Shown in pieces: positions 2,557 to 63,805 of a DNA stretch of 64,000 nucleotides. Source of the stretch: a virus (lineage: Duplodnaviria > Heunggongvirae > Uroviricota > Caudoviricetes); IMG/VR virus record IMGVR_UViG_2791355477_000007; one strand, 5' to 3'. Under the pieces are notes generated by a model, which was not told the origin of the DNA, did no database searches, and saw only the letters and a list, made by a program, of their open reading frames with translations. The translations under genes were made by a program, and so were the position numbers. Position 1 is the stretch's first letter, and each line of letters begins with the position of its first letter.

Positions 2557-2792
2557 TATAATTCTCTCCCTGTTAAATAAATTAGTTAAATACCTGTTTT
2601 ATAAATTATCCTCATATTATATGCAGGAGATAAGAGTTTCATAATTTTATATGCATAAAAAATGGCTTACACCAAAAGAAATTTGTACTTTTTTAGAGAT
2701 ATAAAAAGGCACACAACCATCTATAATAGGTAGTTATTTATAAATTAGGTATTTTATTGCGTGAAATAAAGTTAGATAGGGAGTGTGTATAA

Positions 2793-3305
2793 ATGAAGGT
2801 GTATCATGTTTCTTTAGATAATAAGAAAACGAATGTATTTGCTCCAAGAGTTCCAAAGGACGAAATGCGATTGGCAGAAGAAGATAGTACCAGTGCCCGT
2901 TTTTGTGTCTCGACGACTATTGAAGGGTGTTTATCTGCGGTCCCTTGGGGTGGAGAATCATTAAGTTTACATGATAATAAAGTGATTACGGTTTATGAGT
3001 TTGATACAAATGATTTAGTGAATCAAGAGAATTTAATTGCTCCTTCGACACTATATCAAAAGGGTTTTGTTCCTGATGCGATGTATACGAGTGAACATTG
3101 GATTGTAAATGAATCTATACAGCCTAAAAATGTTTTTTGTATTGCAATAGATTCATATGAGGAAATAGTAGTTCCAGATGTTCCGTATGAAGATAGTTTG
3201 GTTTTAGAAACAGGTCTTGTAACGTTAGATGAGGTTTGGCAAGGAGATTTTGTCATGATTGAAAATATAAAATATCAACTATGTAAAGAAAAGAATGTAG
3301 CATAA
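2793..3305 (+). CDS. hypothetical protein (170 aa); paralog of N-terminal half of 12085..12819
   Basis: MKVYHVSLD..FAPRVP..CVSTTIEGCLSAVPWGG aligns with MSIFYHISMD..FVPRIP..CVSRTIDDCLSAIPSGG of the 12085 ORF; preceded by AGGTATTTT box. Confidence 0.5.
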   Translation: MKVYHVSLDNKKTNVFAPRVPKDEMRLAEEDSTSARFCVSTTIEGCLSAVPWGGESLSLHDNKVITVYEFDTNDLVNQENLIAPSTLYQKGFVPDAMYTSEHWIVNESIQPKNVFCIAIDSYEEIVVPDVPYEDSLVLETGLVTLDEVWQGDFVMIENIKYQLCKEKNVA

Positions 3306-3322
3306 TACATTCTTTTTTATTT
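3292..3322 (+). terminator. rho-independent terminator
   Basis: AGAATGTAgcataaTACATTCT hairpin + TTTTTT. Confidence 0.6.
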
Positions 3323-3351
3323 TGACTAAAGTCTAAAATATTTATATTTCA

Positions 3352-3381
3352 TTGACAATAGTAAATAAAATAATCTATAAT
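3352..3381 (+). promoter_or_regulatory. sigmaA-type promoter (TTGACA-18-TATAAT) upstream of pspA-like gene
   Basis: TTGACA at 3352, TATAAT at 3376, 18-bp spacer. Confidence 0.55.
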
Positions 3382-3425
3382 GTAACCATAGCAAGGAAAA
3401 ATACATATTTAGGAGTGTGATTGAA

Positions 3426-4142
3426 ATGGGTTTAGTAACTCGCTTTAAAAATGTTTGCAAGGGGTATTTCAATAAATGGCTTACAAAAGCAGAAGACCCT
3501 GAAGTGATGTTAGAGCAATTAATTGCAGAAAGCAAAACAAAGTATGAAAAAGTACAAATTGAAACTGCGAAAGCTATTTCCTCACGAGCAATGGTTTCAA
3601 AGGACTATGAAGCTCAATTGAAAAAATGTGAAGACTTAGTTGCAAAAGCGAAAGCATCTATTAAAGCAGGGAATGATAAACTTGCCACTGATTTCTTAGA
3701 GCAAAAGAAAGATGAAGAGGAAATTCTTCAAGAAATCAAATTGAGTTTAGAAACGGCCGAGAGACAAGAAGAGTCATTAAAAGATGAATTAAAACGTTTG
3801 ACAAAAGTAATGAAAAAAGCCGAAACGAAAAAACAATTACTTATTGCTAAGAATAACAGAGCACAAGCTCAAAAAACAGCTCAAGAGATTCGCCATGATT
3901 TAGATGGAGGAAACACTCTAACTGAAATTGGTAAAATCGAGAGAAAAATTGACGAGAAAGAATCTTTAATTTCTGCAAAAGAAGATGTTCACTCTATTAT
4001 TACAAAATCAGATGTAGAACGTGAATTTGAAGAAATTAAAGCAAATGAAGTAAGTGAAGAAATTCAAACTGAATTAGAAACTTTAAAAGCTCAAATGGCA
4101 AGTGAAGAGTCTAAAGAAGTTGCACTAACAAAAGAAGCATAA
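3426..4142 (+). CDS. pspA: PspA/IM30 family protein (phage-shock protein A / LiaH-like)
   Basis: MGLVTRFKNV...KAEDPEVMLEQLI..E matches PspA N-terminus MGIFSRF...KAEDP..; all-helical coiled coil ~240 aa; ATG 3426 preferred over GTG 3417 on RBS spacing (AGGAG at 3411). Confidence 0.8.
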   Translation: MGLVTRFKNVCKGYFNKWLTKAEDPEVMLEQLIAESKTKYEKVQIETAKAISSRAMVSKDYEAQLKKCEDLVAKAKASIKAGNDKLATDFLEQKKDEEEILQEIKLSLETAERQEESLKDELKRLTKVMKKAETKKQLLIAKNNRAQAQKTAQEIRHDLDGGNTLTEIGKIERKIDEKESLISAKEDVHSIITKSDVEREFEEIKANEVSEEIQTELETLKAQMASEESKEVALTKEA

Positions 4143-4159
4143 TTTAAAGAAAAACCTCT

Positions 4160-4195
4160 CTCTTATATAGTAGGAGGGAGGTTTTTTAAGGAGAG
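4160..4195 (+). terminator. terminator/attenuator after pspA
   Basis: CCTCTCTC..GGAGGGAGG hairpin (one G:U) followed by TTTTTT. Confidence 0.5.
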
Positions 4196-4201
4196 ATTTT
4201 A

Positions 4202-4585
4202 GTGCCAAATGAAAATATGATACTTGTAATTTTTTTCATTGGAATACCGATGTTTTCTCTATTGTTTTGCTTATTCCCGATTATAACGATAGTAGTAGCT
4301 TTGGGAATTTGTCTGCTATTTTCTATATGGTGTACGATTACAGATTCTTATATGGAAGTTAGTGATGTGAAAGAATCCATATCTAATAGATTAGACATAT
4401 CAACGGGCGAAATTCTCTTTGATTTAAACAAAAAGAACGCTACTTATTTGAGACCTGGAAACTATAGCGTGTTTACTTCAAAAGGAGAATTTATTCTGGA
4501 GTTAGGAATTGAGTATAACAACTTCTATTGGATTGAATTAAGCCAAGTATCGGATGTTAATTTCATAGATGAATTAAACATATGA
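4202..4585 (+). CDS. small membrane protein, paralog family member (type A)
   Basis: 2 N-terminal TM helices; C-terminal VFTSKGEF...ELSQVSDVNFIDEL motif shared across array; GTG start with AAGGAGAG RBS. Confidence 0.55.
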   Translation: MPNENMILVIFFIGIPMFSLLFCLFPIITIVVALGICLLFSIWCTITDSYMEVSDVKESISNRLDISTGEILFDLNKKNATYLRPGNYSVFTSKGEFILELGIEYNNFYWIELSQVSDVNFIDELNI

Positions 4586-4602
4586 GATAGGAGGGATAGG
4601 TA

Positions 4603-4983
4603 ATGGATGAAGAAGGAATTATAGGTTGTTTTGGTGTCTTAGCAATTTTAGGAGCATTATTCTACTGTTTCCCCATTATTATGGCTGTTATTACATTCAC
4701 GATTATAATAATTGGTGTTTGGACGGTTCACTCTGATTCTAAAGATAATAGAAAAAAGTTTCTTACTGATTTGCAATCTGAAATACCTCAGAAGCTTAGA
4801 ATTACAAAAGATGAAGTAATTTATGATTTCGGAGAAAAAGGTGAATCTTCATGGAAATACGAAGACTTTCGAATTTTTACTTCCAGAGGAGAATTCATTG
4901 TAAAGATTAAAGATGTAGATAAGAAAGATATTGAGTTAGAGCAAGTATCTGATGTTGATTTCATGAAGGAGTCGAAACAATAA
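4603..4983 (+). CDS. small membrane protein, paralog family (type A)
   Basis: TM N-term; FRIFTSRGEFIVKI...ELEQVSDVDFMKE. Confidence 0.6.
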   Translation: MDEEGIIGCFGVLAILGALFYCFPIIMAVITFTIIIIGVWTVHSDSKDNRKKFLTDLQSEIPQKLRITKDEVIYDFGEKGESSWKYEDFRIFTSRGEFIVKIKDVDKKDIELEQVSDVDFMKESKQ

Positions 4984-5357
4984 TGATAGCAGAAATTTTA
5001 ATGGTCTTTGGGCTCATAGTTGGGTTGATTATAGCTATTTCTCGTTTATCTCCTATAATTGGAATTATTTTCTTAATCATGCTATTGATTGGCATTGTCG
5101 TATTTAGTCATTACATACGAAAAGAAGAGCTTACAGAGTTAAAAGAAGTAATAGCTCATAACCTGTCAATTTCACAGAAAGAGATATTATTTGATGTTGA
5201 ACGAACGAGAAAATCTTTCTTAGGATGGAGAAAACTATATGTTTTTACATCAAAGGGAGAATTTGAAGTCAATATACATAGAGATAATGGTGAATGGGTA
5301 GGTATAGATTTGATTTCTATTTCAAATGTCGATTATATGAAAGAATTAAACTACTAA
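4983..5357 (+). CDS. small membrane protein, paralog family (type A)
   Basis: start overlaps previous stop (ATGA); YVFTSKGEFEV...ISNVDYMKEL. Confidence 0.6.
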   Translation: MIAEILMVFGLIVGLIIAISRLSPIIGIIFLIMLLIGIVVFSHYIRKEELTELKEVIAHNLSISQKEILFDVERTRKSFLGWRKLYVFTSKGEFEVNIHRDNGEWVGIDLISISNVDYMKELNY

Positions 5358-5478
5358 ACAAAATGAAGAGAGGTGTAAACATAATGGTTATGCGTTTTAT
5401 TGATGGATGTTTCAACAAAATATGTTTTTACATATTCTCTTCATTTTTATATGAATGAATTTTTAGAGAGGTGTCTAT

Positions 5479-5988
5479 ATGGATAAAAAGAATTATGAAA
5501 GTTTGTTCATGATGGGTCTGACAATTATGTCGATTATGGCTATAGTGGAAGAGAATTTTCAACGATATTTTATTATTTTATTGATATATATATGCTTCAT
5601 TACTATGATTCATTTCTTTCTTAATTATAAAAAATCTAAAACAAAAAATATGGTAGTCATTGAAGAATGCGTGAGAGAGAGTTTTACAAAATTAATAAAT
5701 GACTCCTATTATAAACTTTACGAAAATCAGCACCCTAAAGAAGTGGAAGAGAAATTCTTAGAGACAGTTAGAGCAATGAACATTATCATTCATCGAAACG
5801 GAGCATTGAATAAAAGCTCTTTCAAAGATAGATGCTTAAAAGGTTTTTACGAAGAAGACATCCGATTCTTTACAATGTTTGGAGAGTATACCTGTACTGT
5901 GAATGTATTAAAAGATGGATTAGGTGAACTGAAGAACCTCGACCAAATTTCTGATTTGGATTTTGATAAAGCGTTGAAAGGGATTTAA
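5479..5988 (+). CDS. small membrane protein, paralog family (divergent type B)
   Basis: TM N-term; ...CLKGFYEEDIRFFTMFGEYTCTVNV...ISDLDFDKAL. Confidence 0.5.
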   Translation: MDKKNYESLFMMGLTIMSIMAIVEENFQRYFIILLIYICFITMIHFFLNYKKSKTKNMVVIEECVRESFTKLINDSYYKLYENQHPKEVEEKFLETVRAMNIIIHRNGALNKSSFKDRCLKGFYEEDIRFFTMFGEYTCTVNVLKDGLGELKNLDQISDLDFDKALKGI

Positions 5989-6072
5989 AAATTGTAATAT
6001 TTATTTGTTTTTAGAATTTTTTAGAATTTATTCCTTAAAGTAGGAAGAAGGTTATGTAAAGGAGTTGAGGAT

Positions 6073-6531
6073 ATGTCTGATAACAATACTTCATCTATAC
6101 TATTCACGATGATAATTCCGCCTTTAGGGTTCATATTATTCTTGCTAAGACCTTCGTTGACAAAACTATATACAAACCATTTTACTGCATTTATTTTGGG
6201 GTTTATTGGTGTTGTCATGTGTATTATAGGAATCTCGCTTTATATTTACAAAATAGAATACAACCGTATTAAAAACAAAGATTTTGATAGAGTAAAAAAA
6301 ACTCTAACAAGGTACCTCAAAAAGAGTTTTGTATTAGTGGAAGAAGAAAAAGGATTAACAAAAAAGGATATCAATAAAAGATGTTTTACATCTTATCAAA
6401 CAAAATTCACTGTTTTTGTTCCCGATGGAGAACTCTTATGCACTGTAAACGTGAGTGAATATGACGTTGATGTTATGAAAGTAAAACGAGTATCAAAAAT
6501 GAATTTAAATAAAGAACTTTATGCGAGTTAA
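6073..6531 (+). CDS. small membrane protein, paralog family (type B)
   Basis: EYNRIKNKDFDRVKK..L.KRCF.SYQ..F.VFVPDGELLCTVNV signature. Confidence 0.6.
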   Translation: MSDNNTSSILFTMIIPPLGFILFLLRPSLTKLYTNHFTAFILGFIGVVMCIIGISLYIYKIEYNRIKNKDFDRVKKTLTRYLKKSFVLVEEEKGLTKKDINKRCFTSYQTKFTVFVPDGELLCTVNVSEYDVDVMKVKRVSKMNLNKELYAS

Positions 6532-6534
6532 TAT

Positions 6535-7032
6535 ATGCAGGAAATGGGTGAGAAGGCAATGTTTGATGCAGAGGTAGTAGAGAATCCATTTATTATTATA
6601 TTATTTATCGTGCTTGTTGGACTGTGTAAAGTCTTCTATGCCACAAATGCTTTCGCTTTCTATATTGTGATTACAGCTCTTCTTAGCATTATTTTAGGCA
6701 CGATATATTTTATTTACAAAAAAGAATACAACCGAATAAAACAAAGGGATATGGATAGAGTAAAAGCTACTTTGACGAGATTTCTCAGAACAAAGTATTC
6801 AACAATGTCCCAGATTAATAGTTTTTTTGTATTAATGGAAGAAGAGAAATATGTATCAAAAATAACTATTTTAAAAAGATGCTTTAAATCGTATCAACTA
6901 ACTTTAACAACGTTTATTCCAAGTGGAGAGCTTTTATGTTCTGTTACAGTGAGTGAAAACAAAGTTGATATTGATGAAGTAAGAGAAATTTCAATGTTAG
7001 ATTTAAAGAAAGAGCTGTATGTGAATAAGTAA
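6535..7032 (+). CDS. small membrane protein, paralog family (type B)
   Basis: EYNRIKQRDMDRVKA...KRCFKSYQL...PSGELLCSVTV. Confidence 0.6.
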   Translation: MQEMGEKAMFDAEVVENPFIIILFIVLVGLCKVFYATNAFAFYIVITALLSIILGTIYFIYKKEYNRIKQRDMDRVKATLTRFLRTKYSTMSQINSFFVLMEEEKYVSKITILKRCFKSYQLTLTTFIPSGELLCSVTVSENKVDIDEVREISMLDLKKELYVNK

Positions 7033-7058
7033 ATAGAGTATGTAAGGAAGTGATTTGG

Positions 7059-7553
7059 ATGTTTGATGATGAATCTAACGATTTATTAGTTTGTATAATG
7101 TTTGCACCAGTAGTTATTACGATTATAGCGTTTCTAATTATCTCTTTTGTACATATGTTTGTTAATTTCTATAATTCAAATATATTTTACTTTATAACAG
7201 GGGTTTCTGCTTTTGTTAGCTTAGTTGCAGGAAATGTGTATTGTCTTTACAAGAAAGAATATAACCGAATTAAAACAAATGATTTTAATCGAATAAAAGA
7301 AGAAATAAAAAAACATATTCGTAGTTGCTATGTAGAAAATACTTTTTGTTTAGTTGAAGAAAAAGAAGTTTCAAAAAGAGAAATTTTGAAAAGATGTTTT
7401 CGTACATACGAATTGTCGATTCATGTTTTTGCTCATCATGGAGAATTGGTTTATCAAACAAAGGTAAATAAAGATGAGGTATGGTTCAAAAACATAACGC
7501 AAGTTTCAAACGTGAATTTTGCAAAAGAATTTTATAAGAAATCAAAAATATAG
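7059..7553 (+). CDS. small membrane protein, paralog family (type B)
   Basis: EYNRIKTNDFNRIKE...KRCFRTYEL...HGELVYQTKV; ATG 7059 preferred (RBS AAGGAAG 7 nt upstream) over GTG 7050. Confidence 0.55.
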   Translation: MFDDESNDLLVCIMFAPVVITIIAFLIISFVHMFVNFYNSNIFYFITGVSAFVSLVAGNVYCLYKKEYNRIKTNDFNRIKEEIKKHIRSCYVENTFCLVEEKEVSKREILKRCFRTYELSIHVFAHHGELVYQTKVNKDEVWFKNITQVSNVNFAKEFYKKSKI

Positions 7554-7626
7554 GAATAGATACTTTATCAATTCCTATATAAATCCAAAAATATTTAAAG
7601 TTTAATAGTTTAAGGGAGGGCTTAAA

Positions 7627-8121
7627 ATGTGTGATAAGGAGTCGGAAGAACACTCTAATTCAAATTTATTCCTGTATGCACTTCTGCCTTTAATAGCGTT
7701 CTTGCTTCCATTTCTTAAGCCAGAGCTGAGTTCCGAGAACTTTATAAAATTCGTCAATACACTAATAGGTGTTCTTGTATTTGTGGTTGTATGTATCTCT
7801 ATAACCTTCTTGAGAAGAGAATATAACCGCATTAAAAGGAAAGATTTTGTTCGAATCAAGGAACAAGTTACACAGCATGTAAAAGAGCACTACTACTTAG
7901 GAATGCAAGACAGTTTTATTTTAATTGATAAGGAGAAAAATCTAACAAGAAAAGAAATCTTAAAAAGATGTTTTTCTACATATAAGGTAAAGATTCCTGT
8001 ATTTGCTCCAAGTGGAGAGTTTCTATATGAAGTGAAGGTTAATGAACAAGATGTAGAAATAATAAACTCTAAACGGGTATCACATGTTAGCTATGGTAGA
8101 GAGCTATATGTATATAAATAA
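7627..8121 (+). CDS. small membrane protein, paralog family (type B)
   Basis: EYNRIKRKDFVRIKE...KRCFSTYKV...PSGEFLYEVKV; RBS GGGAGGG. Confidence 0.6.
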   Translation: MCDKESEEHSNSNLFLYALLPLIAFLLPFLKPELSSENFIKFVNTLIGVLVFVVVCISITFLRREYNRIKRKDFVRIKEQVTQHVKEHYYLGMQDSFILIDKEKNLTRKEILKRCFSTYKVKIPVFAPSGEFLYEVKVNEQDVEIINSKRVSHVSYGRELYVYK

Positions 8122-8190
8122 ATGGGTATGTTAAAAATAAATATTTTTTTATATTAATAAAAAGATATGAAGAAGGAAGGAGATGTAGAA

Positions 8191-8688
8191 ATGTTTCATA
8201 AAGATGACCCAGAAGTAGTTTTAATGAAATATACAATTTTTTTGGGAATAGGATTAATCGTTTTCAACATCATAGTATGGGGTGTTTTATGGGTTACGAA
8301 TCTTGTTATGAATAATCTAACTGTAGTTATGTATGGAATTACAGGGATTGTTTTTATCGGAGTAGGTATTTCGATGTGTTTTATCAGGAAAGAATATGAC
8401 CGTATTACAAAATATGATTTTGACAGAGTTAAACGCTTATTAAGTCAGTATCTTAATGAAGAATATTTTAATGGCCAGAATAATAGTTTTATTTTAGTAG
8501 AAGAGGAAAAGGGAGTAACAAAGAAGGATTTTTTGAAGAGATGCTTTGCCACCTATCATATAGATTTAAAGGTGTTTGTTCCAGATGGAGAACTTTTATG
8601 TACTGTAAAGGTATATAAAGAAGGAATCCGAGTAAAAAATGTTAAGCGTCTTTCTCATATGAATTATAGAAAAGAATTTACGAAATAA
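8191..8688 (+). CDS. small membrane protein, paralog family (type B)
   Basis: EYDRITKYDFDRVKR...KRCFATYHI...PDGELLCTVKV; ATG 8191 has RBS GAAGGAAGGAG, upstream ATG 8167 lacks one. Confidence 0.55.
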   Translation: MFHKDDPEVVLMKYTIFLGIGLIVFNIIVWGVLWVTNLVMNNLTVVMYGITGIVFIGVGISMCFIRKEYDRITKYDFDRVKRLLSQYLNEEYFNGQNNSFILVEEEKGVTKKDFLKRCFATYHIDLKVFVPDGELLCTVKVYKEGIRVKNVKRLSHMNYRKEFTK

Positions 8689-8755
8689 ATACATATCCAA
8701 TAAATATTTTTGGGTTTATATAAGAATTGATAATAAATAAAAGGAGAGATTTTAA

Positions 8756-8938
8756 ATGTTTAAAGATGTAATTAAAAAAGTAGGTTCTATGCAAAATGTA
8801 ATTTCAGCTTCTTGTATCGGTGGTGGAGCAATTCTATTCAATTGGTTATTCCCTAAAATCACACTGTTTATCATTATCGGATTGTTAATTTTTAAGTATA
8901 ACGAACCAGTAAAAAAACGACTTTTTAAAGATAAATAA
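8756..8938 (+). CDS. small hydrophobic protein (60 aa)
   Basis: strong RBS AAAAGGAGAG; two predicted TM segments; inside paralog array. Confidence 0.4.
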   Translation: MFKDVIKKVGSMQNVISASCIGGGAILFNWLFPKITLFIIIGLLIFKYNEPVKKRLFKDK

Positions 8939-8952
8939 GAAAGGGAATTCAA

Positions 8953-9348
8953 ATGAAAACGAATAAAATTCAAATCGCAGTAGTAGTAGTTCCTTATTTT
9001 GTTTTATTAACAAAGTTTGTTATGAATCATAATATAGCAGGTTCTGTTATTTTGACCATATATGCTGTACTTATTTACAATTTCATCTCTTTATTTAAAT
9101 TAATTGATATGAAAGAGGTTAATTTTAAGAGAATTCATAGGAAATTAAAAAGTGTCATGAAGTTAAAAAATGATGATTGCATTGTAAAGTGTGACCAAAA
9201 GGTTCCTTTTATACATGTATTAATTGGAAAAGAACAATCTTACCTTTCAACATGCAATGTCTTAACCGCAAATGGGGAATTCACCATTTTAGTTGAGGTA
9301 ACACCAAAAGAAATTATTATTAAGCATAAAGAGTGTGTTCAGCAGTAG
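8953..9348 (+). CDS. small membrane protein, divergent member of paralog family
   Basis: TM N-term; C-term ...LTANGEFTILVEV... resembles GEF motif. Confidence 0.45.
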   Translation: MKTNKIQIAVVVVPYFVLLTKFVMNHNIAGSVILTIYAVLIYNFISLFKLIDMKEVNFKRIHRKLKSVMKLKNDDCIVKCDQKVPFIHVLIGKEQSYLSTCNVLTANGEFTILVEVTPKEIIIKHKECVQQ

Positions 9349-9367
9349 AAAAATGTGGAGGGGAATA

Positions 9368-9778
9368 ATGATGAATATAACATCTCATGTGGAAAATTCA
9401 AAATATGTCTTATTAGGAATATTGGGGGGTATCACATTTTTTGCGGTTGTTATTCGCCCTCTCTTTTATTTAGTCCCTGTATATATGAAGTATATAAAGA
9501 ATAGAAAAGTAGAGGCAGAGAAAAGAATTGTAACAGTTAAAGAATATGTTTCAAAATGCTTTGGGGTAGAACAAGAATCAATAGTCGTAGAATGTTTAGA
9601 AAATAAATCGACTTCTAAGTTAAAGGGATTTTATGAATATATGACAAAGAAAGCAGAATCATATCGTGTGTTTTGTGAGCATGGAGAATTTATTTTCAAA
9701 ATGGACATGTATGATGGTAATACAAAACTTACTGATGCCAAAATGGTATCTGATACAAATTTCAAAGATGCATTATAA
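9368..9778 (+). CDS. small membrane protein, divergent member of paralog family
   Basis: RBS GGAGGGG before ATGATG; YRVFCEHGEFIFKM...MVSDTNFKDAL. Confidence 0.5.
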   Translation: MMNITSHVENSKYVLLGILGGITFFAVVIRPLFYLVPVYMKYIKNRKVEAEKRIVTVKEYVSKCFGVEQESIVVECLENKSTSKLKGFYEYMTKKAESYRVFCEHGEFIFKMDMYDGNTKLTDAKMVSDTNFKDAL

Positions 9779-9816
9779 AGAGTGTCTGATTAATGGAAAT
9801 GTGAGGTGTAAATAAC

Positions 9817-10194
9817 ATGTATAGAAAAGAATTTATTTGTAGTGTAATAGGTTTTTTGTTTGCTATAATTGGCTCTATTTTGAACATGAATATCTTTTCT
9901 GGTGGTGTTCTTTTTATTTCATTATTAGGGGTTATATATATTTATAAAAAAAAGCTAAAAGGAGAGTCCATCATAGCTGATAGAGTAGTGAAAGCTCGTA
10001 TTTATGAAAAGTTTTATTCTCCTATATATGCTCCTGAAGGAAAAACAGTCCTATTCGAAAAATCGTTAGAAAATACATATCGAATTTTTACAAAAAAAGG
10101 GGAGTATGTACTCACTATACATTCTTCGGCACAAGGAATTGGCTATGAGTATAAGAAAGTATCAGATGTAGATTATTTCAAAGAAATTTCGTGA
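9817..10194 (+). CDS. small membrane protein, paralog family (type A)
   Basis: YRIFTKKGEYVLTI...KKVSDVDYFKEIS. Confidence 0.6.
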   Translation: MYRKEFICSVIGFLFAIIGSILNMNIFSGGVLFISLLGVIYIYKKKLKGESIIADRVVKARIYEKFYSPIYAPEGKTVLFEKSLENTYRIFTKKGEYVLTIHSSAQGIGYEYKKVSDVDYFKEIS

Positions 10195-10226
10195 TGGAAG
10201 CAAAATAATAAAGGGGTGAAAAAAGG

Positions 10227-10613
10227 ATGAGCAAGGCTAAGTATCTATTGGTAGGTTTAATTTTTGTTTTTGGAATATATATATACCCATACGTTGATGA
10301 GCTTGGTGTTTTAATCGGTGTTGCAGTTTTTGTATATTTTATTTTGTATGATTTAAAAACATTTATTGAAAAGATAGATGATAAGAACAAAGATATCGGA
10401 TTGAGGGAATCACTTCATATAGTCTTTTCTGCTCCTAAATATGCTCCTGAAGGAAAAAAGGTCATTATTGAATTTGTTAAAAAAGATGAGTATCGAGTTT
10501 ATACAAAAAAAGGAGATTACTCCATTGTTATTGAGCGAGGGGAAGAAGATGCAATACTGAATATGAAAAAGGAAAAATTATCAGACGTAGATTTCTTCAA
10601 AGAAGTATTTTGA
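10227..10613 (+). CDS. small membrane protein, paralog family (type A)
   Basis: PKYAPEGKKVII...YRVYTKKGDYSIVI...KLSDVDFFKEVF. Confidence 0.6.
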   Translation: MSKAKYLLVGLIFVFGIYIYPYVDELGVLIGVAVFVYFILYDLKTFIEKIDDKNKDIGLRESLHIVFSAPKYAPEGKKVIIEFVKKDEYRVYTKKGDYSIVIERGEEDAILNMKKEKLSDVDFFKEVF

Positions 10614-10634
10614 TTTTATTAAGAAAACTATGTT

Positions 10635-11027
10635 ATGAAGGGACTGATAAAGGTGAAGTATCTACTATTAGGAATTTTTATCTTTTCAATTTATAGATTT
10701 CCATCTTTCGATAATTTCAATATCTTAATTGGCTCATTTTTGTTTGTTGTTTTTATTGTATATGATGTTGTCAATATGAAGTTAAAAAGAGAAGAACTAA
10801 ATGAGGATGAGCGATTAAGAAAGATGATTTATAGAAATTTTCCTGCTCCTGAGTTTGCACCAGAAGGGAAACAGGTAATTATTGACCGTTTAACATCAGA
10901 TGAGTACCAAGTATATACAACAAAAGGAGCCTATTCTTTTATTGCTGTGAGAGGACCATTTGATTTAATTGTTGATATAAAGGAAGAAAAGCTGTCAGAC
11001 ATAGATTTTTCCAAAGTAATAGCTTGA
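10635..11027 (+). CDS. small membrane protein, paralog family (type A)
   Basis: PEFAPEGKQVII...YQVYTTKGAYSF...KLSDIDFSKVIA. Confidence 0.6.
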   Translation: MKGLIKVKYLLLGIFIFSIYRFPSFDNFNILIGSFLFVVFIVYDVVNMKLKREELNEDERLRKMIYRNFPAPEFAPEGKQVIIDRLTSDEYQVYTTKGAYSFIAVRGPFDLIVDIKEEKLSDIDFSKVIA

Positions 11028-11031
11028 ATTG

Positions 11032-11150
11032 TGTAAAGAAAAGAATGTAGCATCATGCATTCTTTTTTTATTTTGACTATAATTTATTTTATTTTTATTT
11101 CATTGACAATAGTAAATGAAATATTTATAATGATAACCATATCAATGGTC
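11032..11150 (+). repeat. direct repeat DR2 (partner of 3282..3390)
   Basis: see DR1; includes hairpin+T-run and TTGACA-17-TATAAT. Confidence 0.7.
11103..11131 (+). promoter_or_regulatory. sigmaA-type promoter inside DR2
   Basis: TTGACA 11103, TATAAT 11126, 17-bp spacer. Confidence 0.5.
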
Positions 11151-11185
11151 AAATATAAATGGATTGACAAGGAAGTGAGATATAG

Positions 11186-11389
11186 ATGAATGTGCATATC
11201 GAATATTTCATTAAGTGTTTGACAGAAATTTTAGAAAAAGATTTAAAAGAACATGCAGTAGATGTTCCAAATATGATTCAACAGTCTATTTTTTATGAAT
11301 TGATAAAAGAAGAGCCTTTATTTGCAACGCATTATCCACCCGAATATTGGTCTGATGAAATTTATAAAGAGCAAATTGAAAGGAAGTAG
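11186..11389 (+). CDS. hypothetical small cytoplasmic protein (67 aa)
   Basis: ORF with RBS GGAAGTGAG; no TM; no recognisable motif. Confidence 0.4.
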   Translation: MNVHIEYFIKCLTEILEKDLKEHAVDVPNMIQQSIFYELIKEEPLFATHYPPEYWSDEIYKEQIERK

Positions 11390-11393
11390 CGAT

Positions 11394-11840
11394 ATGGATA
11401 GATATAATGTATTGAGATTTTGCATTCCTATTATGGGCGGGCTTATGTTTCCACTTGTGGTGTTTTTTGATAATCCAATAATATCTTTGGGAATTATCAT
11501 GGGTATTCTATTAATTAGTTTTGCGTTCCATTTGGTTTTGAAAATCCATAAAATCAAGTACGAAGATTTGGAAAGAGCTGAAAAGTGTATTTGTTATGAG
11601 CTTGGTTTCCTTATGCTTGATAAAGAAGGATTCTCTATATCAGTGATAAATAGAGAAACTAAACTTAATGTAATCACTTTACTAAAGAGATGTTTTTTCA
11701 GTTCCTGTGAAAACTACAGTGTTTACACATCTATGGGAGAAGTGAAGGTAAGTGTTATGATTTACGATGAGATTGCTTTTATTGATGAAATGGATTTTAT
11801 ATCAAATGTTAATTATGAAGAACTTTTAAACGTAAGTTAG
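11394..11840 (+). CDS. small membrane protein, paralog family (type B, divergent)
   Basis: ATG 11394 with RBS AAGGAAG; ...LLKRCFFSSCENYSVYTSMGEVKVSV...ISNVNYEELL. Confidence 0.5.
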   Translation: MDRYNVLRFCIPIMGGLMFPLVVFFDNPIISLGIIMGILLISFAFHLVLKIHKIKYEDLERAEKCICYELGFLMLDKEGFSISVINRETKLNVITLLKRCFFSSCENYSVYTSMGEVKVSVMIYDEIAFIDEMDFISNVNYEELLNVS

Positions 11841-12084
11841 GAAGATAACTTTAGACTTCTTGTTATTACAAAAACGTTCGCATTATTATGAACAGCAATT
11901 TGTTATGTGAAAAACTTGTATGTTATTTTAAAATATTTTCTACATGGTTTATCCTATTTATTTTTTACAGAAAAACTATATGTTGTATACGAAATATAAT
12001 AAAAAAACGCTCCTGGCATAAAATACTATGTTATTACAAATCAGGTATTTTATGAATTTATTTAAAAAGGGGAGCGTTTTTATT

Positions 12085-12819
12085 ATGTCTATTTTTTATC
12101 ACATTTCAATGGATTTACAGCATTCAGGAGAGTTTGTACCAAGAATTCCATCTTGTCGTCATCAAGACAAAGAGGACGATGTGACAAACCGCATATGTGT
12201 GAGTAGAACGATTGATGATTGTCTTTCAGCTATACCAAGCGGAGGGGCACATTTAGAGGAGTTAAACATTGAACAAAGAGGATATTATAAAGTATTTAAA
12301 ATTGATACAGAAAAATTAGGTATCGAGGATTCAGATATTGTTTCATCGGATGTTTTATATCAAGAAGATTTAGTAAGAGATGCTGAAGTGACAAATGAGC
12401 ATTGGATTTTAAAAGGATTTCAGGTAGCTAAAGAGGATTCTTATATAATAAAGCTGATTGCTTGGGAAGAGTCTTCTAAAGATATTGTGCCAGAATTTAT
12501 TTATCGAATGGCAGAAGAACAGTATGGAGGAGATTATGTTAAGGCATACACTGACCATTTCAACGGCTATATGCCTTGCTCTACGTTTATAGTCGATGCA
12601 GGTTATGTAAAGGAATTTGTAAATGCAGGGATGACTTTGAGTTTTTATTTTGATACAGAGGAAGAGAAGGAGTATTTACTGTCTAAGTTTCAATTAGATA
12701 AAAGAATACATATCTCATATCAAGACATGGATACGATATCTATTTGCATAAAAGAAGATATGTCATGTGAAGAGTTATTTACTCAACACCTTCAATTCTT
12801 AAAGAATAATTTATTATAG
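12085..12819 (+). CDS. hypothetical protein; N-terminal half paralogous to 2793..3305
   Basis: internal ATG 12085 preferred (RBS GGGGAG, AGGTATTTT box 35 nt upstream); alignment with 170-aa protein. Confidence 0.5.
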   Translation: MSIFYHISMDLQHSGEFVPRIPSCRHQDKEDDVTNRICVSRTIDDCLSAIPSGGAHLEELNIEQRGYYKVFKIDTEKLGIEDSDIVSSDVLYQEDLVRDAEVTNEHWILKGFQVAKEDSYIIKLIAWEESSKDIVPEFIYRMAEEQYGGDYVKAYTDHFNGYMPCSTFIVDAGYVKEFVNAGMTLSFYFDTEEEKEYLLSKFQLDKRIHISYQDMDTISICIKEDMSCEELFTQHLQFLKNNLL

Positions 12820-12821
12820 GA

Positions 12822-13217
12822 GTGTTAGAAATGAAACTGCAAAAACCACTTAAAACAGTTAAAGTATGTATTCTATTATTAACTTGTTCATCTTTTTTGT
12901 TCGGTTGTGAGCATACAGTTAGAACAGAAGAAAATGTGATAGGACAAGTAGTAGATAGACAAATAGAAAAAGTGAAAATTGAAGGCGACTGCACTCAGAT
13001 TCCGATTGGGGATACTGGTGTTTTTATGCCAATTTGTGATGATGATAAAGAAGAAGAGCATTTTAATGTAACAGTTCAAGCCCATGGAATTACTACAATT
13101 CTTAATGATAAATCAATGTTTGAGAGCAAAGAGAAAGAACTTCCTGTTATTTATATAAAAGAAGTAGGGGAAGAATCAAACAAAGTCTATGATGAGCGGT
13201 TAATATTACCTTATTAA
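12822..13217 (+). CDS. putative lipoprotein
   Basis: signal peptide with lipobox LFGC (…CSSFLFGCEH); start abuts previous stop. Confidence 0.55.
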   Translation: MLEMKLQKPLKTVKVCILLLTCSSFLFGCEHTVRTEENVIGQVVDRQIEKVKIEGDCTQIPIGDTGVFMPICDDDKEEEHFNVTVQAHGITTILNDKSMFESKEKELPVIYIKEVGEESNKVYDERLILPY

Positions 13218-13392
13218 TGAAGAGAGCGAGTGTAAACTTGCTCTCTTTTATTTTGTTATTACAAATAAATACTCTGTTAAAAGATAAGTAATGTATATAT
13301 ATAAATTATAAGAAGATGAATTGTACTTTTGAACAGTTCAAAGAGCAGTGGATTAAATACTCACTGCTCTTTGAATATTTAATTGATATGAC

Positions 13393-14763: not shown

Positions 14764-14769
14764 CCTCCA

Positions 14770-15861: not shown

Positions 15862-16126
15862 GCTCCTTAACCGTATTTGAATAGGAAATAAAAACCGTCA
15901 TCTTCTTATCATAAGGAGAATTGACTATATTTTGCAATTGTTTAACCTCTAAAAATTAAAATAAAAGGATATAATATAGTTTTTTTTAATAGAAGACGAA
16001 CTATGAAGGGAAATATGTATGCTGACAGAGATTTTATTGAATGAATGAAGTATTGGAATAGTATAATCATAGGAATATAAAAAAACAGGTATTTAAATAA
16101 ATTTAATGTAAAAGGGGCTATTTAAA

Positions 16127-19726: not shown

Positions 19727-19767
19727 CTATATGATAGAATAATGGTAAAGGAAGTGGAGGAGATATT

Positions 19768-50242: not shown

Positions 50243-50440
50243 TTAATTTGCAACCCCTTTTTATTTCGATTCTTTTTCTATTGACTATAGTATATAACAT
50301 GAATTCCGTTTAGTAAATTATTTTTTGTAAAAATACACAATAAAAAAGAAGAGATACAATCCCTTCTTTAAAAGAATAGTTGTTTTTTGCACGACATAAT
50401 CAATTCAACTCATTCTTCAACTCTTTCAAAACATCCATTT

Positions 50441-52708: not shown

Positions 52709-52834
52709 AATAAGAATCCACCTTTTTAATAAATTTTTTAAATTACCTGTTTTATATATTCCATTTATTTTAGATTCTAAGAATCCTACTTATTCGTTGT
52801 TGGTAAAAATGACATAAAAAAACCACCTATAATA

Positions 52835-54133: not shown

Positions 54134-54147
54134 ATTAACTATAGTCA
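54134..54147 (-). promoter_or_regulatory. TTGACTATAGTTAA box (minus-strand reading) in promoter of 52835..54085
   Basis: 14-bp near-palindrome; -35-like TTGACT; one of 5 copies in window. Confidence 0.35.
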
Positions 54148-54238
54148 ATGTAAATTCGGATTGTTTTTCATCCTCATTTTCATCACAATAAAAAAGACCA
54201 TTTAGTATAATAACTAAACGGTCTACCTTCTTACCCTA

Positions 54239-54550
54239 TTAAAATCCAAAAATATACTTCATACGCTGACTTACACCCCAATGAATATCTTCCAATGGTG
54301 TTTTTCTCGCTCTTTGTTCAAATCCATTAAACACCATTTCTTTGGAACCATTAAAGATACGATAAGCAATTATAGGTTTGTCATATTCTTCTTCTTCTGT
54401 TCCTTCAGATATTTGAACCATAATACCACCTAAATTATCTTTATAAGCAATATTGAACCCATTTTTAGTAGGCTCATATTCCCAATTATCCCCCAGATTT
54501 CTTCTTAATTGTCCTGCATTTGATAATTCGATTAAACCATATAAAGTCAT
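54239..54550 (-). CDS. hypothetical protein (103 aa)
   Basis: ORF between the two Cys-rich paralogs. Confidence 0.4.
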   Translation of the reverse strand: MTLYGLIELSNAGQLRRNLGDNWEYEPTKNGFNIAYKDNLGGIMVQISEGTEEEEYDKPIIAYRIFNGSKEMVFNGFEQRARKTPLEDIHWGVSQRMKYIFGF

Positions 54551-54644
54551 ATAAATTCTCCTTTGAAATAATTTTTAAAAATACCTTTTTTATATATTGT
54601 TTATATATTATAGGTGGTATATACAATATATATAAATGTAATTC

Positions 54645-60077: not shown

Positions 60078-60111
60078 TCGTTGTAAATCCCTTCATCTTT
60101 TTATTTTGTTT

Positions 60112-60991: not shown

Positions 60992-61072
60992 TAAAATTTA
61001 TATATTGACTATAGTTAATAAAAGTTGTAAGATATGTTCATACGAAACACGAAAACTTAATAGGAGTGACTG

Positions 61073-61864
61073 TTGATGTTACAAAATATCTTATCAACTT
61101 ATGCGTCTTTCTTTGATTTACATATGTGGAAAGAAGTATTAAGTGACCCTGTAGCCTGGGGCTTAATTGGTAGTTTAGTTCTTTTGGAAGGATTACTTTC
61201 TGCGGATAACGCATTAGTATTAGCCGTTATGGTAAGACATTTACCTGAAGAGCAACGAAAGAAAGCATTAATGTACGGATTATGGGGAGCTTATATCTTC
61301 CGATTTATTGCAATTGGATTAGGTACTTACTTAGTCAAATTTACGATTGTAAAAGTATTTGGAGCACTTTACTTACTTTGGTTATCGTTTAAATTCTTTA
61401 AAGAACGATATATCGACAAAAAAGGTGCAGATAATCCTGAGGATGAAGCCGTAGATGTAAAAGATGGTTTCTTAGCTCGTTATATTGGTGTATTCTGGGC
61501 AACAGTAGCAACAGTAGAGTTAATGGATATCTCATTCTCTGTAGATAGTATCTTAGCTTCATTTGCCGTAAGTAACGAAGTATGGGTACTGTTTATGGGT
61601 GGTGTTTTAGGAATTCTAATGATGCGTGGTATCGCAGGAGTGTTTATTACTATCATTGATAAAATTCCTGAATTAGAAACAACTGCATATGTATTAATTG
61701 CATTCATTGGTTTAAAGATGCTATTAAGTATTGACCAAATCGGTATTGAAATTAATCATACAGCATTCTTCTCTGTAATTATCTTAGCGTTTGTAGGAAC
61801 ATTCATTATTCACTACTTACGAAAAGGTAAATCAGGTGCAAATGAAGAAAAGAAATCAGCGTAA
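61073..61864 (+). CDS. TerC family integral membrane protein
   Basis: LSADNALVLAVMV and later repeat of the motif region typical of TerC/YkoY family; 7-8 TM; terminator hairpin 61872-61916. Confidence 0.75.
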   Translation: MMLQNILSTYASFFDLHMWKEVLSDPVAWGLIGSLVLLEGLLSADNALVLAVMVRHLPEEQRKKALMYGLWGAYIFRFIAIGLGTYLVKFTIVKVFGALYLLWLSFKFFKERYIDKKGADNPEDEAVDVKDGFLARYIGVFWATVATVELMDISFSVDSILASFAVSNEVWVLFMGGVLGILMMRGIAGVFITIIDKIPELETTAYVLIAFIGLKMLLSIDQIGIEINHTAFFSVIILAFVGTFIIHYLRKGKSGANEEKKSA

Positions 61865-62025
61865 TAATCTAAATAGAGTTCAATTGAGTATATCTTCAAT
61901 TTGAACTCTATTTTTATACATTTACACAGTGAACTTTACTTGTTACAATGTTAACCATATTCACATAACTAAATATTTTATTTTAAATTGCTAAGTTTAT
62001 ATGTTGGAAAGGTGGAAATATAATA

Positions 62026-62316
62026 ATGGAAAATGCAATCATCATTGAAAAAATGATTCAACATATCCGACAATACGCTAAAGAAAGAGCGGAATCTGTT
62101 TCAAGAGGTGCTGAAACTCCACATCTCTCAGGACTTCTTCTTCAAAAATATGGTCGTGGAGTAATAGATACTATAAATGAACTTTATTCGACTCCAAGGG
62201 CTTCTGATGAAATATACAAAATTTTAGATGCAGAGACAGCAAAAATTGACCCAGAATGGAAGCTTCATAACAAGCAGAGATGGTCTGGTCATCCCGCAGA
62301 TATATGCATAAAATAA
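62026..62316 (+). CDS. hypothetical protein (96 aa)
   Basis: RBS AAAGGTGGAAA; terminator 62314-62351. Confidence 0.4.
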   Translation: MENAIIIEKMIQHIRQYAKERAESVSRGAETPHLSGLLLQKYGRGVIDTINELYSTPRASDEIYKILDAETAKIDPEWKLHNKQRWSGHPADICIK

Positions 62317-62440
62317 AAAGAGCCCCAATATGGTCGGTGGGCTCTTTTTATTTTGGTAGGTTTTTATAATGATGAAAGAATTTATCAAAGTGATTAATCT
62401 CTACACTCTATATTTTATCATGTGAGCATTTTAATTCAAT

Positions 62441-62776
62441 TCAAATAACGTTCGAGGTAGTGTCTATATGTCCTTGGTTATAATGATTTACAATTAATTC
62501 TCCCATACCACCATTCATTTCTCCTATCCAAATCATAATCTCTTGCAGTTCCTTTGTGTCAGAGACCATATACTTCAATCCATATACCGCTAATTTCCCA
62601 ATGTTTCTTCTATGTTCAAATCCTATAAACTTTAATTCATTTATTAATTTTATAGATAACCCTTTTCTTTTTTCATTAAATTTTTGACCTTTAATAAAGG
62701 GAGTATACACCTTTATTATTTCATCCACTAATACATACAAACCTTGTACTTCATCAGTAGTAGAAATTTGCAACAT
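62441..62776 (-). CDS. hypothetical protein (111 aa)
   Basis: ORF. Confidence 0.35.
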   Translation of the reverse strand: MLQISTTDEVQGLYVLVDEIIKVYTPFIKGQKFNEKRKGLSIKLINELKFIGFEHRRNIGKLAVYGLKYMVSDTKELQEIMIWIGEMNGGMGELIVNHYNQGHIDTTSNVI

Positions 62777-62953
62777 ACATTTATCCCCTCCACAGTCTTA
62801 TATGTATATTATAAACAAATCCACGTCAAAATCAAACGTACGTTCTTTTTGGTAGATATAAAAAAACACAAAGAATGATTCTCTGTGTTTAAAAATTTTT
62901 AGTTTAATGCCAATTCAACATCTTCACCCTTATTATTTATAATAAATAACTAA

Positions 62954-63505
62954 TTATTTTGCGAAAAATCCTGGTAAGAAATCTGTTAATCCATTAGAAG
63001 TCGGATTCGGACCATAAAAACCAAATCGACTTTCAATTACCTCCCCTGATGGATTAAATACTTGATATCCATATACTTGACCTTTTAGATAGTAATCATA
63101 TTGTTTTACTTCTTTCATTAATTCCTGAACAATTTCCTGTTTTAGTACTTTTGATACTCGATTCACTTGATATCTGGTACGAATCATTTCTCTATTAACA
63201 TAAATATATCCTATGTGTCTTGCTAATTCAGTATATTGCACAACACTTATTTCAAGTGTACGACCTTCATGCAGATAGATGGGTAAGATAACCGCATTTT
63301 TATCGTTTATTTCATTTTTAAAATCTGCTTCCGTTTCAAAAGAATGTTCATCACCTAATGTATTCTTTTTATCAAAGCATACAATTCTTCCTAAATTCCC
63401 TCTTTTTTCTCGTGGATTTATAGCTTCTGCATCACCACAAATCGCTACCTTTTCACCGTTGAACTCCATTTGCATACCTTCATATAAATAATAACCTGTC
63501 ATCAC
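62954..63505 (-). CDS. hypothetical protein (183 aa)
   Basis: AAAACAGGTATTTT box 35 nt upstream (minus strand). Confidence 0.4.
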   Translation of the reverse strand: MMTGYYLYEGMQMEFNGEKVAICGDAEAINPREKRGNLGRIVCFDKKNTLGDEHSFETEADFKNEINDKNAVILPIYLHEGRTLEISVVQYTELARHIGYIYVNREMIRTRYQVNRVSKVLKQEIVQELMKEVKQYDYYLKGQVYGYQVFNPSGEVIESRFGFYGPNPTSNGLTDFLPGFFAK

Positions 63506-63805
63506 GAAAACACTCCTCTTTAATCATTTCAAATGTAAAATACCTGTTTTATATATTCGTATTATCATATGGCATTCAAAAAGAGGAAATTCAATAAAAA
63601 AGAAAAGCCGAGACAATTTATCTCAGCTTTCATGACCCTAATATTAGGGTGTTCTTATTTTATATTAATAACATTACGCTTACTTTTCTATCTATCCTTT
63701 ATAAGCTCTCATGCCATAATCCCAAAAACATGAACGTGAATTATTATACCGAATATCATTTAAGCTAAATTCTACTCTTAGAAAGGATTCTAATACAGTA
63801 TAAAA

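Follow-up and report, generated by a model that had tools for sequence, protein, structure and literature searches.

The gp71 stoperators of L5, known from the cluster A mycobacteriophages, are short asymmetric motifs that occur between genes in tens of copies, keep one orientation and provide element-wide control. Here, we analyzed a repeated motif, hereafter the box, in a stretch of 64,000 nucleotides (the window; virus record IMGVR_UViG_2791355477_000007) that corresponds, reverse-complemented, to record positions 167353-231352 of the 501,911-bp plasmid BTB_502p (NC_018878.1) of Bacillus thuringiensis Bt407. Window positions 1-25000 matched NC_018878.1 with 100% identity (megablast), and the entire plasmid, beyond the window, was taken as the frame for judging the motif. 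The genome announcement calls BTB_502p novel and says nothing more about it, and no mention of the motif was found in the literature that we searched. Like a stoperator, the box is asymmetric and repeated (57-65 copies), and all copies are co-oriented with the downstream gene. Stoperators, however, occur anywhere along transcription units, with no fixed distance to a -10 hexamer and no covarying hairpin. No gp71-like repressor was identified for the box, although no search for a homolog was made. As judged from the sequence, the box is a start-site-proximal element, at ∼+8 to +20, of a distinct promoter class that lacks a -35 hexamer, and it probably marks a plasmid-wide set of co-regulated genes. 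We tentatively favor the view that it is the core of a promoter-plus-leader module of ∼75 bp and acts as a transcribed 5'-leader signal, read by a factor of the plasmid lineage, which would unite the plasmid cargo in one regulon. The element fits none of the systems compared below; its closest analogs in function would be the repeated regulatory sites of mobile elements.

All 12 boxes that an initial annotation had located in the window were present, at the same place or at most 1-3 nt away. The exact 12-mer AAACAGGTATTT was found at four sites (2588-2599 and 63538-63549 on the minus strand, 16083-16094 and 17027-17038 on the plus strand). The remaining listed boxes were variants with one to three mismatches that kept the core (C/T/A)AGGT(A/G), such as AATTAGGTATTT at 2743, AAATAGGTATTC at 20915, ATAACAGGTGAATT at 30722 and AAAGTAGGTATTC at 39417. 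When the 100 nt before each annotated gene of the window were read, two further boxes came to light, which brought the number of modules to 14. When up to two mismatches to the 12-mer were allowed, no enrichment could be observed in the window (26 matches vs 17.9±4.1 expected from shuffles). With at most one mismatch, nine sites were found vs 1.3±1.0 expected, none of 100 shuffles reached nine, and for eight of the nine, an annotated start codon followed on the same strand at a distance of 36-47 nt. A position-weight matrix (PWM) trained on the window copies and applied to the whole plasmid identified 113 sites of at least 11 bits, compared with 30-37 in shuffles. The regulon 'across this island' that had been proposed was too narrow, since copies are distributed over all 502 kb, from 12 kb to 499 kb of the record. 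We defined a composite copy as a box accompanied by a hexamer matching TATAAT at five or more of six positions, a Shine-Dalgarno (SD) site and a start codon. The copy number is given as at least 57-65, where 57 is the number of covariance-model matches at E≤1 (see below) and 65 that of composite PWM sites on the plasmid.

When the 14 window sites were aligned on AGGT, a TATAAT-type hexamer was present at a fixed distance upstream in all of them. Over the 65 composite copies, the end of the hexamer was separated from the A of AGG by 18 nt in 26, 19 nt in 19 and 20 nt in 7 cases. This association is not a selection artifact, because it was also examined in the 44 strongest boxes taken regardless of their context: an exact TATAAT ended 17-21 nt upstream in 23 of these (∼0.2 expected), and 38 had a match of at least 5/6. 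Strong boxes without a -10 were rare. The logo of the 65 copies reads tTTATAa - N15 - (c)TATAATA - aat - G-A - tta - TATAAAACAGGTATTT - ... - AATTnATTTAAAAGGAG. From 5' to 3', the module consists of a T-rich region with a weak tTTATAa in the place of a -35, (c)TATAATA, G-A, TATAAAACAGGTATTT, a hairpin of 4-8 bp, UnAUUUAAAAGGAG and the start codon, with an A-rich spacer between the hairpin and the SD site, and the spacings between elements are constant to ±1 nt. The box contributes ∼16 bits with an invariant GG, and G (62%) and A (83%) are found 6 and 7 nt past the hexamer, the usual position of a start site. The A of AGGT was located 35-47 nt from the start codon (mode 40), the start codon itself being predicted at ∼+40, and AGG was 25-27 nt from the SD site in 40 of the 65 copies. 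Only one copy was found per transcription unit; operon-internal genes had an SD site and no box. The constant distance to the start codon and the similar sequence downstream of the box, AATTnATTTAAAAGGAG in our alignment, are as initially described, and so is the general picture of a common cis-element that stands in fixed geometry before unrelated genes and probably defines a co-regulated set. Three features are additional to that description, namely the TATAAT-type hexamer before every box, the hairpin arm in the 3' half of the box and the spread over the whole replicon.

The initial annotation had distinguished the box from a sigmaA -10 and from a sigmaB promoter, and this distinction held, as the TATAAT is separate and upstream and no GTTTAA is present. 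AGGTAT agrees with the sigmaB -10 GGGTAT at five of six positions, yet the region 12-20 nt upstream is A-rich or occupied by TATAAT. It had also been suggested that the box is itself the -10 of an alternative sigma factor or a site for a shared regulator. Participation of an additional factor is plausible: in the 65 copies, the best match to a -35 TTGACA at spacers of 16-18 was at most 4/6, with the same distribution as at random TATAAT sites, the TGn of an extended -10 was found in none, and the plasmid encodes a SigE/SigK-like sigma. On the other hand, the part of the suggestion that makes the box a -10 is rendered improbable by the canonical TATAAT 18-19 nt upstream and by the G-A at 6-7 nt past this hexamer. 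A scan for sigma-70 promoters with two hexamers did not include box promoters among its strong hits; in window 1-20000, full matches at 12/12 hexamer positions were obtained only for the other promoter class described below.

In essence, the idea is that TATAAT and ACAGGTAT, 16-19 bp apart, serve as -35-like and -10-like elements of a core promoter that the plasmid SigE/SigK-like sigma or an alternative sigma of the host would read, with transcription beginning a few nucleotides past the box. We regard this as quite improbable. Its strength is that two high-information blocks are found at the typical -35/-10 spacer length in promoters without TTGACA and TGn, on a plasmid whose sigma lacks a pro-sequence, and that AGGTAT is similar to GGGTAT. 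However, the upstream block matches a sigmaA -10 perfectly and is not a known -35, the purine pair is conserved at start-site distance from TATAAT, and a weak TTATA occurs 17 bp upstream of TATAAT. The box is also unlike the SigE/SigK -10 (CATA...T). For TATAAT, the comparison was with a -10 of CATAcAnT or CATAnnnTA and a -35 of ATAtt or AC: a C directly precedes TATAAT in 24 of the 65 copies and CA in only 17 (as CATATAAT or CATATGAT), and the weak TTATA does not resemble the -35 of SigE or SigK. A start downstream of the box would, moreover, halve the covarying hairpin described next. Phage promoters without a -35 (T4 middle or late; phage-specific early/middle classes) are comparable in having a good -10 and a class-specific extra motif over one replicon. 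They differ in the placement of that motif, as the box is downstream of the -10 and not at -30, and no phage structural genes are annotated on BTB_502p.

Past AGGT, the sequence varies from copy to copy yet remains self-complementary (ATTGA/TCAAT, ATTCA/TGAAT, ATTCG/CGAAT, AATGCA/TGCATT, TCTTC/GAAGA and TATAG/CTATA). The 5' arm of the resulting hairpin is the ATTnn of the box itself and the stem comprises 4-8 bp; in 34 of the 65 copies, it begins 4 nt past the A of AGG, and the length of the whole hairpin is 12 or 13 nt. Because AT-rich DNA readily forms such stems, we used chimeras, in which the 5' part of one copy was joined to the 3' part of another, as control. The mean Watson-Crick stem was 4.35 bp in real copies and 3.56±0.12 bp in chimeras (z = 6.8). 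Allowing G-T pairs extended the stems of real copies by 0.57 bp, and allowing A-C pairs by 0.09 bp, whereas the chimeras gained 0.73 and 0.39 bp, respectively. Thus, G-T is tolerated and A-C is not, an indication that the sense strand is involved as a single strand and not as part of a duplex dyad. We then built a covariance model from 20 copies (32 positions, 4 pairs), which identified 57 sites at E≤1 on the plasmid. In the alignment of these sites, which is fitted to the model and leans towards structure, 97.8% of cells were paired vs 82.1% in shuffles (none of 500 reached 97.8%), and 22 double-sided changes were observed vs 2.4 expected. Sliding the partner by one column left only 59-65% paired. 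No Rfam family was found in the window at the gathering threshold; three sub-threshold matches at E≤1 did not overlap a box. Because the covarying hairpin begins inside the box, it can be argued that the box is transcribed. This covariation, observed within the plasmid and also between orthologous sites (see below), would favor a role in an RNA leader. The box is accordingly predicted to lie inside the 5' untranslated region, a placement that had initially been considered damaging to a promoter-type element if its distance to the start site varied; the distance to the predicted start is constant.

Two RNA-level systems show a similar arrangement. In nut/rrn antitermination, as in the box modules, a promoter is followed in the early transcript by a conserved single-stranded motif (boxA) and a variable hairpin (boxB). 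The box, however, has no similarity to the boxA consensus, many box modules drive single genes that have no need for antitermination, and no N-like, NusB-like or NusG-like genes were found on the plasmid, which is a weak test. The 5' mRNA stabilizers of Bacillus, namely the STAB-SD of B. thuringiensis cry3A and 5'-terminal stem-loops, likewise place an element near the mRNA 5' end, and AGGU can pair with the 3' end of 16S rRNA. In this case, the difference lies in the extent of complementarity, ∼4 nt in the box (AGGU, by inspection) compared with GAAAGGAGG, and in a box hairpin that is weak and not at the extreme 5' end.

The same data bear on the main alternative, at the level of DNA, in which the box is an operator centered near +13 where a plasmid-encoded repressor or other regulator blocks RNA polymerase at all box promoters together. 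The cargo of the 502-kb plasmid would then be kept silent until a signal arrives or a new host is entered, by a logic akin to that of the lac O1 position, the KorA/KorB or ArdK regulons and the L5 stoperators. We consider an operator somewhat unlikely, even though several observations agree with it. The distance to the -10 is constant to ±1 nt and the box is nearly always coupled to a promoter; the motif is asymmetric, has ∼16 bits and keeps a single orientation relative to transcription. The box-linked ArdC-like and SSB genes are typical establishment genes, and two small genes behind modules might encode autoregulators, namely a 72-aa DeoR-type helix-turn-helix (HTH) protein (record 419688) and the product of the 154-aa gene that precedes the sigma gene. 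Operator-style global control would also be in character for a plasmid that carries a palindromic promoter motif, ATTGACTATAGTCAAT, in 111 copies. What an operator fails to explain is the self-complementary variation past AGGT, with its variable stem and loop length, and the tolerance of G-T but not A-C. A search for dyad half-sites in the box found no partner for ACAGGT, its most conserved part, and the downstream inverted repeat varies in sequence and length. The global regulons of conjugative plasmids, such as those of KorA/KorB (RK2) and of ArdK, StbA and others (R388), place many promoters under a single plasmid-encoded regulator; they resemble the box set in that many promoters carry a repeated site and the targets include ardC and ssb-type genes. 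Their operators, in contrast, are dyad-symmetric and positioned over or before the -35/-10, whereas the box is asymmetric and downstream of the -10; the description of such operators fits the palindrome of this plasmid and not the box.

Comparison with related plasmids provided information on the age of the signal. The sigma gene of BTB_502p (record 499897-500487; L012 18545-19135) encodes a SigE/SigK-like protein without a pro-sequence, whose assignment by the SigK and SigE models was below the cut-off. Homologs with 55-78% identity were found on replicons or contigs of 300-890 kb in Bacillus, Paenibacillus, Brevibacillus, Aneurinibacillus, Jeotgalibacillus, Rossellomorea, Clostridioides and C. 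perfringens, with 55-64% identity in those other than Bacillus. Synteny around the sigma gene is common to P. polymyxa pSC2 and two Bacillus relatives: Tad-type pilus genes and TlpA are shared by these three neighborhoods, and type IV secretion system, ClpX, RaiA, topoisomerase and relaxase-like genes are partly shared. These replicons appear to form a large family of giant plasmids in Firmicutes, essentially undescribed so far, with their own SigE/K-like sigma. In every relative examined, a gene of ∼154 aa directly precedes the sigma gene, and the Bt407 copy (BTB_RS31555; L012 17957-18421) carries a module. We aligned the orthologous upstream region of six plasmids, namely that of Bt407, its three closest relatives (90%, 78% and 73% identity in the 154-aa protein) and two others (64% and 61% identity in sigma). 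The -10, the core A-AGG-A and the hairpin were all kept. The stems differ by compensatory changes: Bt407 and the 73% relative have ATTTA/TAAAT, the 90% and 78% relatives ATTTT/AAAAT, the plasmid whose sigma is 64% identical AATCT/AGATT, and pSC2 ATC/GAT. The covariance model recovered the orthologous sites in the Bacillus relatives.

Elsewhere in the relatives, the box was not general. Neither the PWM nor the covariance model found a box in 50 kb of the pSC2 backbone; the orthologous site of this plasmid has only a degenerate AACAGGAAT. The covariance model also found nothing in the ArdC elements or in the B. bombysepticus and C. difficile plasmids. BLAST matches in the 530-kb plasmid of B. 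bombysepticus, which is unrelated, and in the C. difficile BI1 plasmid reflected AT-rich composition or a different leader. The box does not travel with a gene either, since ArdC homologs of 57-64% identity in other elements lacked it. As a candidate for a general phage motif, TATAAT-N11-16-AAAACAGGTATT gave single matches per contig in the 2.9 million viral contigs of IMG/VR. In the species-representative genomes of GTDB, there was one match per stretch among the matches listed, apart from one contig of a metagenome-assembled genome with two; this search was uninformative for B. cereus chromosomes. By its distribution, then, the signal belongs to the plasmid lineage and not to the genes, and it is old at the 154-aa/sigma locus and multiplied in the lineage of BTB_502p.

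These results have consequences for two of the alternatives. That the archetypal module precedes a two-gene unit ending with the sigma gene in every relative examined, as would be expected for autoregulation, is a point for recognition by the plasmid sigma; the sigma gene, however, has a palindrome-class promoter directly upstream (record 499827), and pSC2, whose sigma is 61% identical, lacks the box in its 50 kb of backbone. The second alternative dispenses with a dedicated reader. The module would be an efficient expression cassette spread by duplication or shuffling, or its initially transcribed sequence would tune promoter escape or a sigmaA-dependent promoter-proximal pause, (A)GG-TATTTw being likened to an extended -10. 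The tandem paralogs 16127/17071 and 32530/33143, each with its own copy, and the loose similarity of G-G-TATTT to TGnTATAAT are consistent with this. Several findings make it improbable nonetheless: positions between the blocks are randomized while blocks and spacings persist, the genes behind the modules are unrelated, and the module is kept at the orthologous site down to 61-64% sigma identity. The invariant GG and the preceding AAAAC are not key bases of a -10-like pause element, of whose hexamer the last T is not conserved in the box. A sigmaH -35, a ComK box, a MogR site, a fourU thermometer, a leader peptide and the NusG TTNTTT pause motif were rejected by inspection, as they left the invariant GG, or a partner they require, unexplained.

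We return to the leader signal, the reading that we tentatively favor. Transcription would start at the conserved G-A, so that the box forms nucleotides ∼+8 to +20 of the mRNA. The signal would be read on nascent or mature RNA as single-stranded AAAACAGGU directly followed by a short stem-loop, and the reader would be a factor specified by the plasmid lineage. This factor might set joint output via early elongation, stability of the 5' end or access to the nearby SD site, and the outcome would be ∼60 units of accessory cargo under one regulon. Candidate readers are the plasmid SigE/K-like sigma and the 154-aa protein encoded before it. Proteomics of growing Bt407 detected many BTB_502p proteins, including the plasmid SSB (PMC12109265). 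SSB is the product of a box-linked gene; indirectly, therefore, some of these promoters appear to be active in ordinary culture.

A number of observations weigh against this reading. The placement at +8 to +20 follows from the -10 geometry, the start site being predicted, and a distance to the -10 that is constant to ±1 nt would be equally expected if the box were a DNA operator or an element of the promoter. In thermodynamic terms the hairpin is marginal, with a mean minimum free energy of ∼-0.7 kcal/mol vs -0.38 for chimeras. Since the hairpins differ in register, RNAalifold predicted no structure from an ungapped MAFFT alignment, and the covariance-model alignment behind the pair counts is itself structure-fitted. 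No relatives of CsrA, Hfq, NusB or NusG were found on the plasmid by tblastn, a weak test in which the CsrA query was that of B. subtilis. A CsrA/RsmA site would in any case differ, as it needs a GGA core and the base past GG in the box is T in 63 of 65 copies. The 154-aa protein had no sequence match in Pfam, NCBIfam or PDB, and only four close homologs were found. Its AlphaFold (AF2) model had a predicted local distance difference test (pLDDT) score of 65 and no Foldseek match at E≤0.001; in this low-confidence model, the N-terminal half is beta-rich and the C-terminal half helical.

A bolder version, which we consider unlikely, is a private expression code of BTB_502p and its close relatives. 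Here, a -35-less promoter class would bear an obligatory leader tag, single-stranded AAAACAGGU plus a stem-loop at ∼+8 to +30, that a plasmid factor reads, and newly acquired cargo would be expressed, and switched on and off jointly, only once tagged. The candidate reader would be the 154-aa/sigma pair, whose own operon carries the ancestral copy.

The 14 modules of the window are as follows. Divergent modules 1 and 2 open the series. Module 1 (2554-2621, minus strand; PWM 23.5 bits) precedes the DUF262 gene 1465-2556 and comprises TATAAT at 2616-2621, the box at 2588-2603, a hairpin at ∼2573-2589, the SD site at 2566-2570 and ATG at 2554-2556. Module 2 (2722-2795, plus; 19.0 bits), before a 170-aa gene (2793-3305), has TATAAT at 2722-2727, the variant TATAAATTAGGTATTT at 2739-2754, an 8-bp hairpin at 2750-2768, the SD site at 2779-2783 and ATG at 2793. 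Gene 12085-12819 follows module 3 (12019-12087, plus; 21.2 bits), which contains TAAAAT at 12019-12024, TACAAATCAGGTATTT at 12035-12050, a hairpin at 12047-12057, the SD site at 12070-12074 and ATG at 12085. Modules 4 and 5 serve paralogous genes. The former (16062-16129, plus; gene 16127-16897), which is a covariance-model match (L001 15893-15924), has TATAAT at 16062-16067, the box at 16079-16094, a hairpin at 16093-16106, the SD site at 16114-16118 and ATG at 16127. The latter (17006-17073, plus; gene 17071-17850) has TATAAT at 17006-17011, the box at 17023-17038, the hairpin ATTTTT/AAAAAT at 17033-17048, the SD site at 17057-17061 and ATG at 17071. Module 6 (20896-20956, plus) drives gene 20954-21508 from a GTG at 20954, with TATAAT at 20896-20901, TATAAAATAGGTATTC at 20911-20926, ATTCA/TGAAT at 20923-20934 and the SD site at 20941-20945. 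In module 7 (30702-30769, plus; gene 30767-31288), the hairpin GAATT/AATTC at 30729-30745 differs from the consensus in both arms; TATAAT is at 30702-30707, the variant TAAATAACAGGTGAAT at 30719-30734, the SD site at 30754-30758 and ATG at 30767.

Modules 8 and 9, both on the minus strand, precede tandem paralogs. For gene 32530-33024, module 8 (33022-33098) provides TATAAT at 33093-33098, TAACAGACAGGTATTC at 33064-33079, a hairpin at 33047-33068, the SD site at 33034-33038 and ATG at 33022-33024. For gene 33143-33637, module 9 (33635-33704) provides TATAAT at 33699-33704, GATAAAACAGGTATTG at 33673-33688, ATTGATT/AATCAAT at 33654-33675, the SD site at 33647-33651 and ATG at 33635-33637. A site-2-protease-family gene (39461-39946) is preceded by module 10 (39398-39463, plus): TATAAT at 39398-39403, ATAAAAGTAGGTATTC at 39414-39429, ATTCG/CGAAT at 39426-39438, the SD site at 39446-39450 and ATG at 39461. 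Modules 11 and 13 are the two added to the initial 12, and these and the rest are on the minus strand. Module 11 (46639-46705; gene 46357-46641) consists of TATAAT at 46700-46705, ATAAAACCAGGTATAA at 46673-46688, a hairpin at 46657-46677, the SD site at 46651-46655 and ATG at 46639-46641. The ArdC-like gene 51866-52708, in which ArdC domains were found, has module 12 (52706-52772), with TAAAAT at 52767-52772, TATAAAACAGGTAATT at 52741-52756, AATTT/AAATT at 52732-52744, the SD site at 52718-52722 and ATG at 52706-52708. In module 13 (54548-54612; gene 54239-54550), TATAAT is at 54607-54612, TATAAAAAAGGTATTT at 54579-54594, ATTTTT/AAAAAT at 54571-54582, the SD site at 54558-54562 and ATG at 54548-54550. 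Module 14 (63500-63566; gene 62954-63502; 23.9 bits) has the shortest spacing, its GATAAT at 63561-63566 being 15 nt from AGG, followed by TATAAAACAGGTATTT at 63538-63553, a hairpin at 63525-63542, the SD site at 63514-63518 and the start at 63500-63505.

Besides the DUF262, ArdC-like and site-2-protease-like proteins, the box-linked genes of the window encode many unknown proteins; elsewhere on BTB_502p, SSB, a MazF-type toxin, an AAA ATPase and a small HTH protein are box-linked. In the tandem paralogs 16127/17071 (256/259 aa) and 32530/33143 (164/164 aa), each gene has a complete box module, and therefore the module appears to duplicate along with its gene. A terminator-like hairpin is found ahead of each promoter of the 32530/33143 pair. 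In two intergenic regions, tandem boxes are 60-105 nt apart (record 14517/14577, L003 14515-14610; and 35846/35952, 35844-35985). The first box of each tandem has no recognizable start codon after it and may serve a small RNA or leader peptide.

The second promoter class is built around the palindrome ATTGACTATAGTCAAT, also written (A)TTGACTATAGTCAA(T), whose 111 plasmid copies were counted at up to two mismatches (2-8 in shuffles). Seven are in the window (3322-3335, 3352-3365, 11103-11116, 37604-37617, 50281-50294, 54135-54148 and 61005-61018) and 104 more on the rest of the plasmid. In window 1-20000, the only perfect promoters of sigma-70 type take their -35, TTGAC(A/T), from this palindrome. 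The palindrome is kept in pSC2 and the Bacillus relatives, and the C. difficile BI1 plasmid has it in the related form ATTGACTATAT; throughout this family of megaplasmids, it probably serves as the signature of an operator or promoter. BTB_502p thus has two stereotyped promoter classes, a canonical sigmaA type with the palindrome and a -35-less type with the box. One may conjecture a cascade in which host sigmaA reads backbone promoters and some plasmid factor reads cargo promoters. The C. difficile BI1 plasmid (300 kb, NC_017177.1, record 92448-132497) has a stereotyped leader of its own, (A)AGTATTATAAAAA, located ∼25 nt before the SD site of many DUF4116 genes. A TGnTATAAT-type -10 is found ∼48 nt further upstream of this leader, which resembles the 3' half of the Bt box; its geometry differs and homology is uncertain.

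Several other features of the plasmid were observed. BTB_502p also encodes rplU, rpmA, prp, obgE, secA, clpX, dnaE, gyrase, ligA and a type I-B cas set. A CRISPR array by cas6 was considered as a source of box-like sequence; no array was found there, and the box-like match at record 438918 is probably due to chance. Almost no protein-coding gene is listed in a 6.6-kb stretch (record 100001-106600), which could hold RNA genes, as these are omitted from the PLSDB table. Two CBASS-type pairs of a SAVED-domain protein and a CD-NTase are present on the plasmid, at window 13393-15852 (minus strand) and at L007 2482-4903, and the window pair has 86% identity to a copy on a B. toyonensis plasmid. Other window genes include DUF262, Rpn-family, SprT-like, SpoIISA and WXG100/immunity genes.

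The genes of giant plasmids include hundreds without a known function, and how their expression is coordinated and made affordable for the host is almost unstudied. Here, ∼60 transcription units of BTB_502p, a 502-kb plasmid from a model strain of B. thuringiensis, are delimited by one promoter-leader signal, and the presence of two promoter classes on one replicon may be a sign of a regulatory cascade. Replicons of this kind, 300-890 kb in size and with their own SigE/K-like sigma, form a family that is widespread in Firmicutes and has essentially not been studied. If the private code were true, a giant plasmid would have a global regulon based on leader RNA, for which no counterpart has been described.

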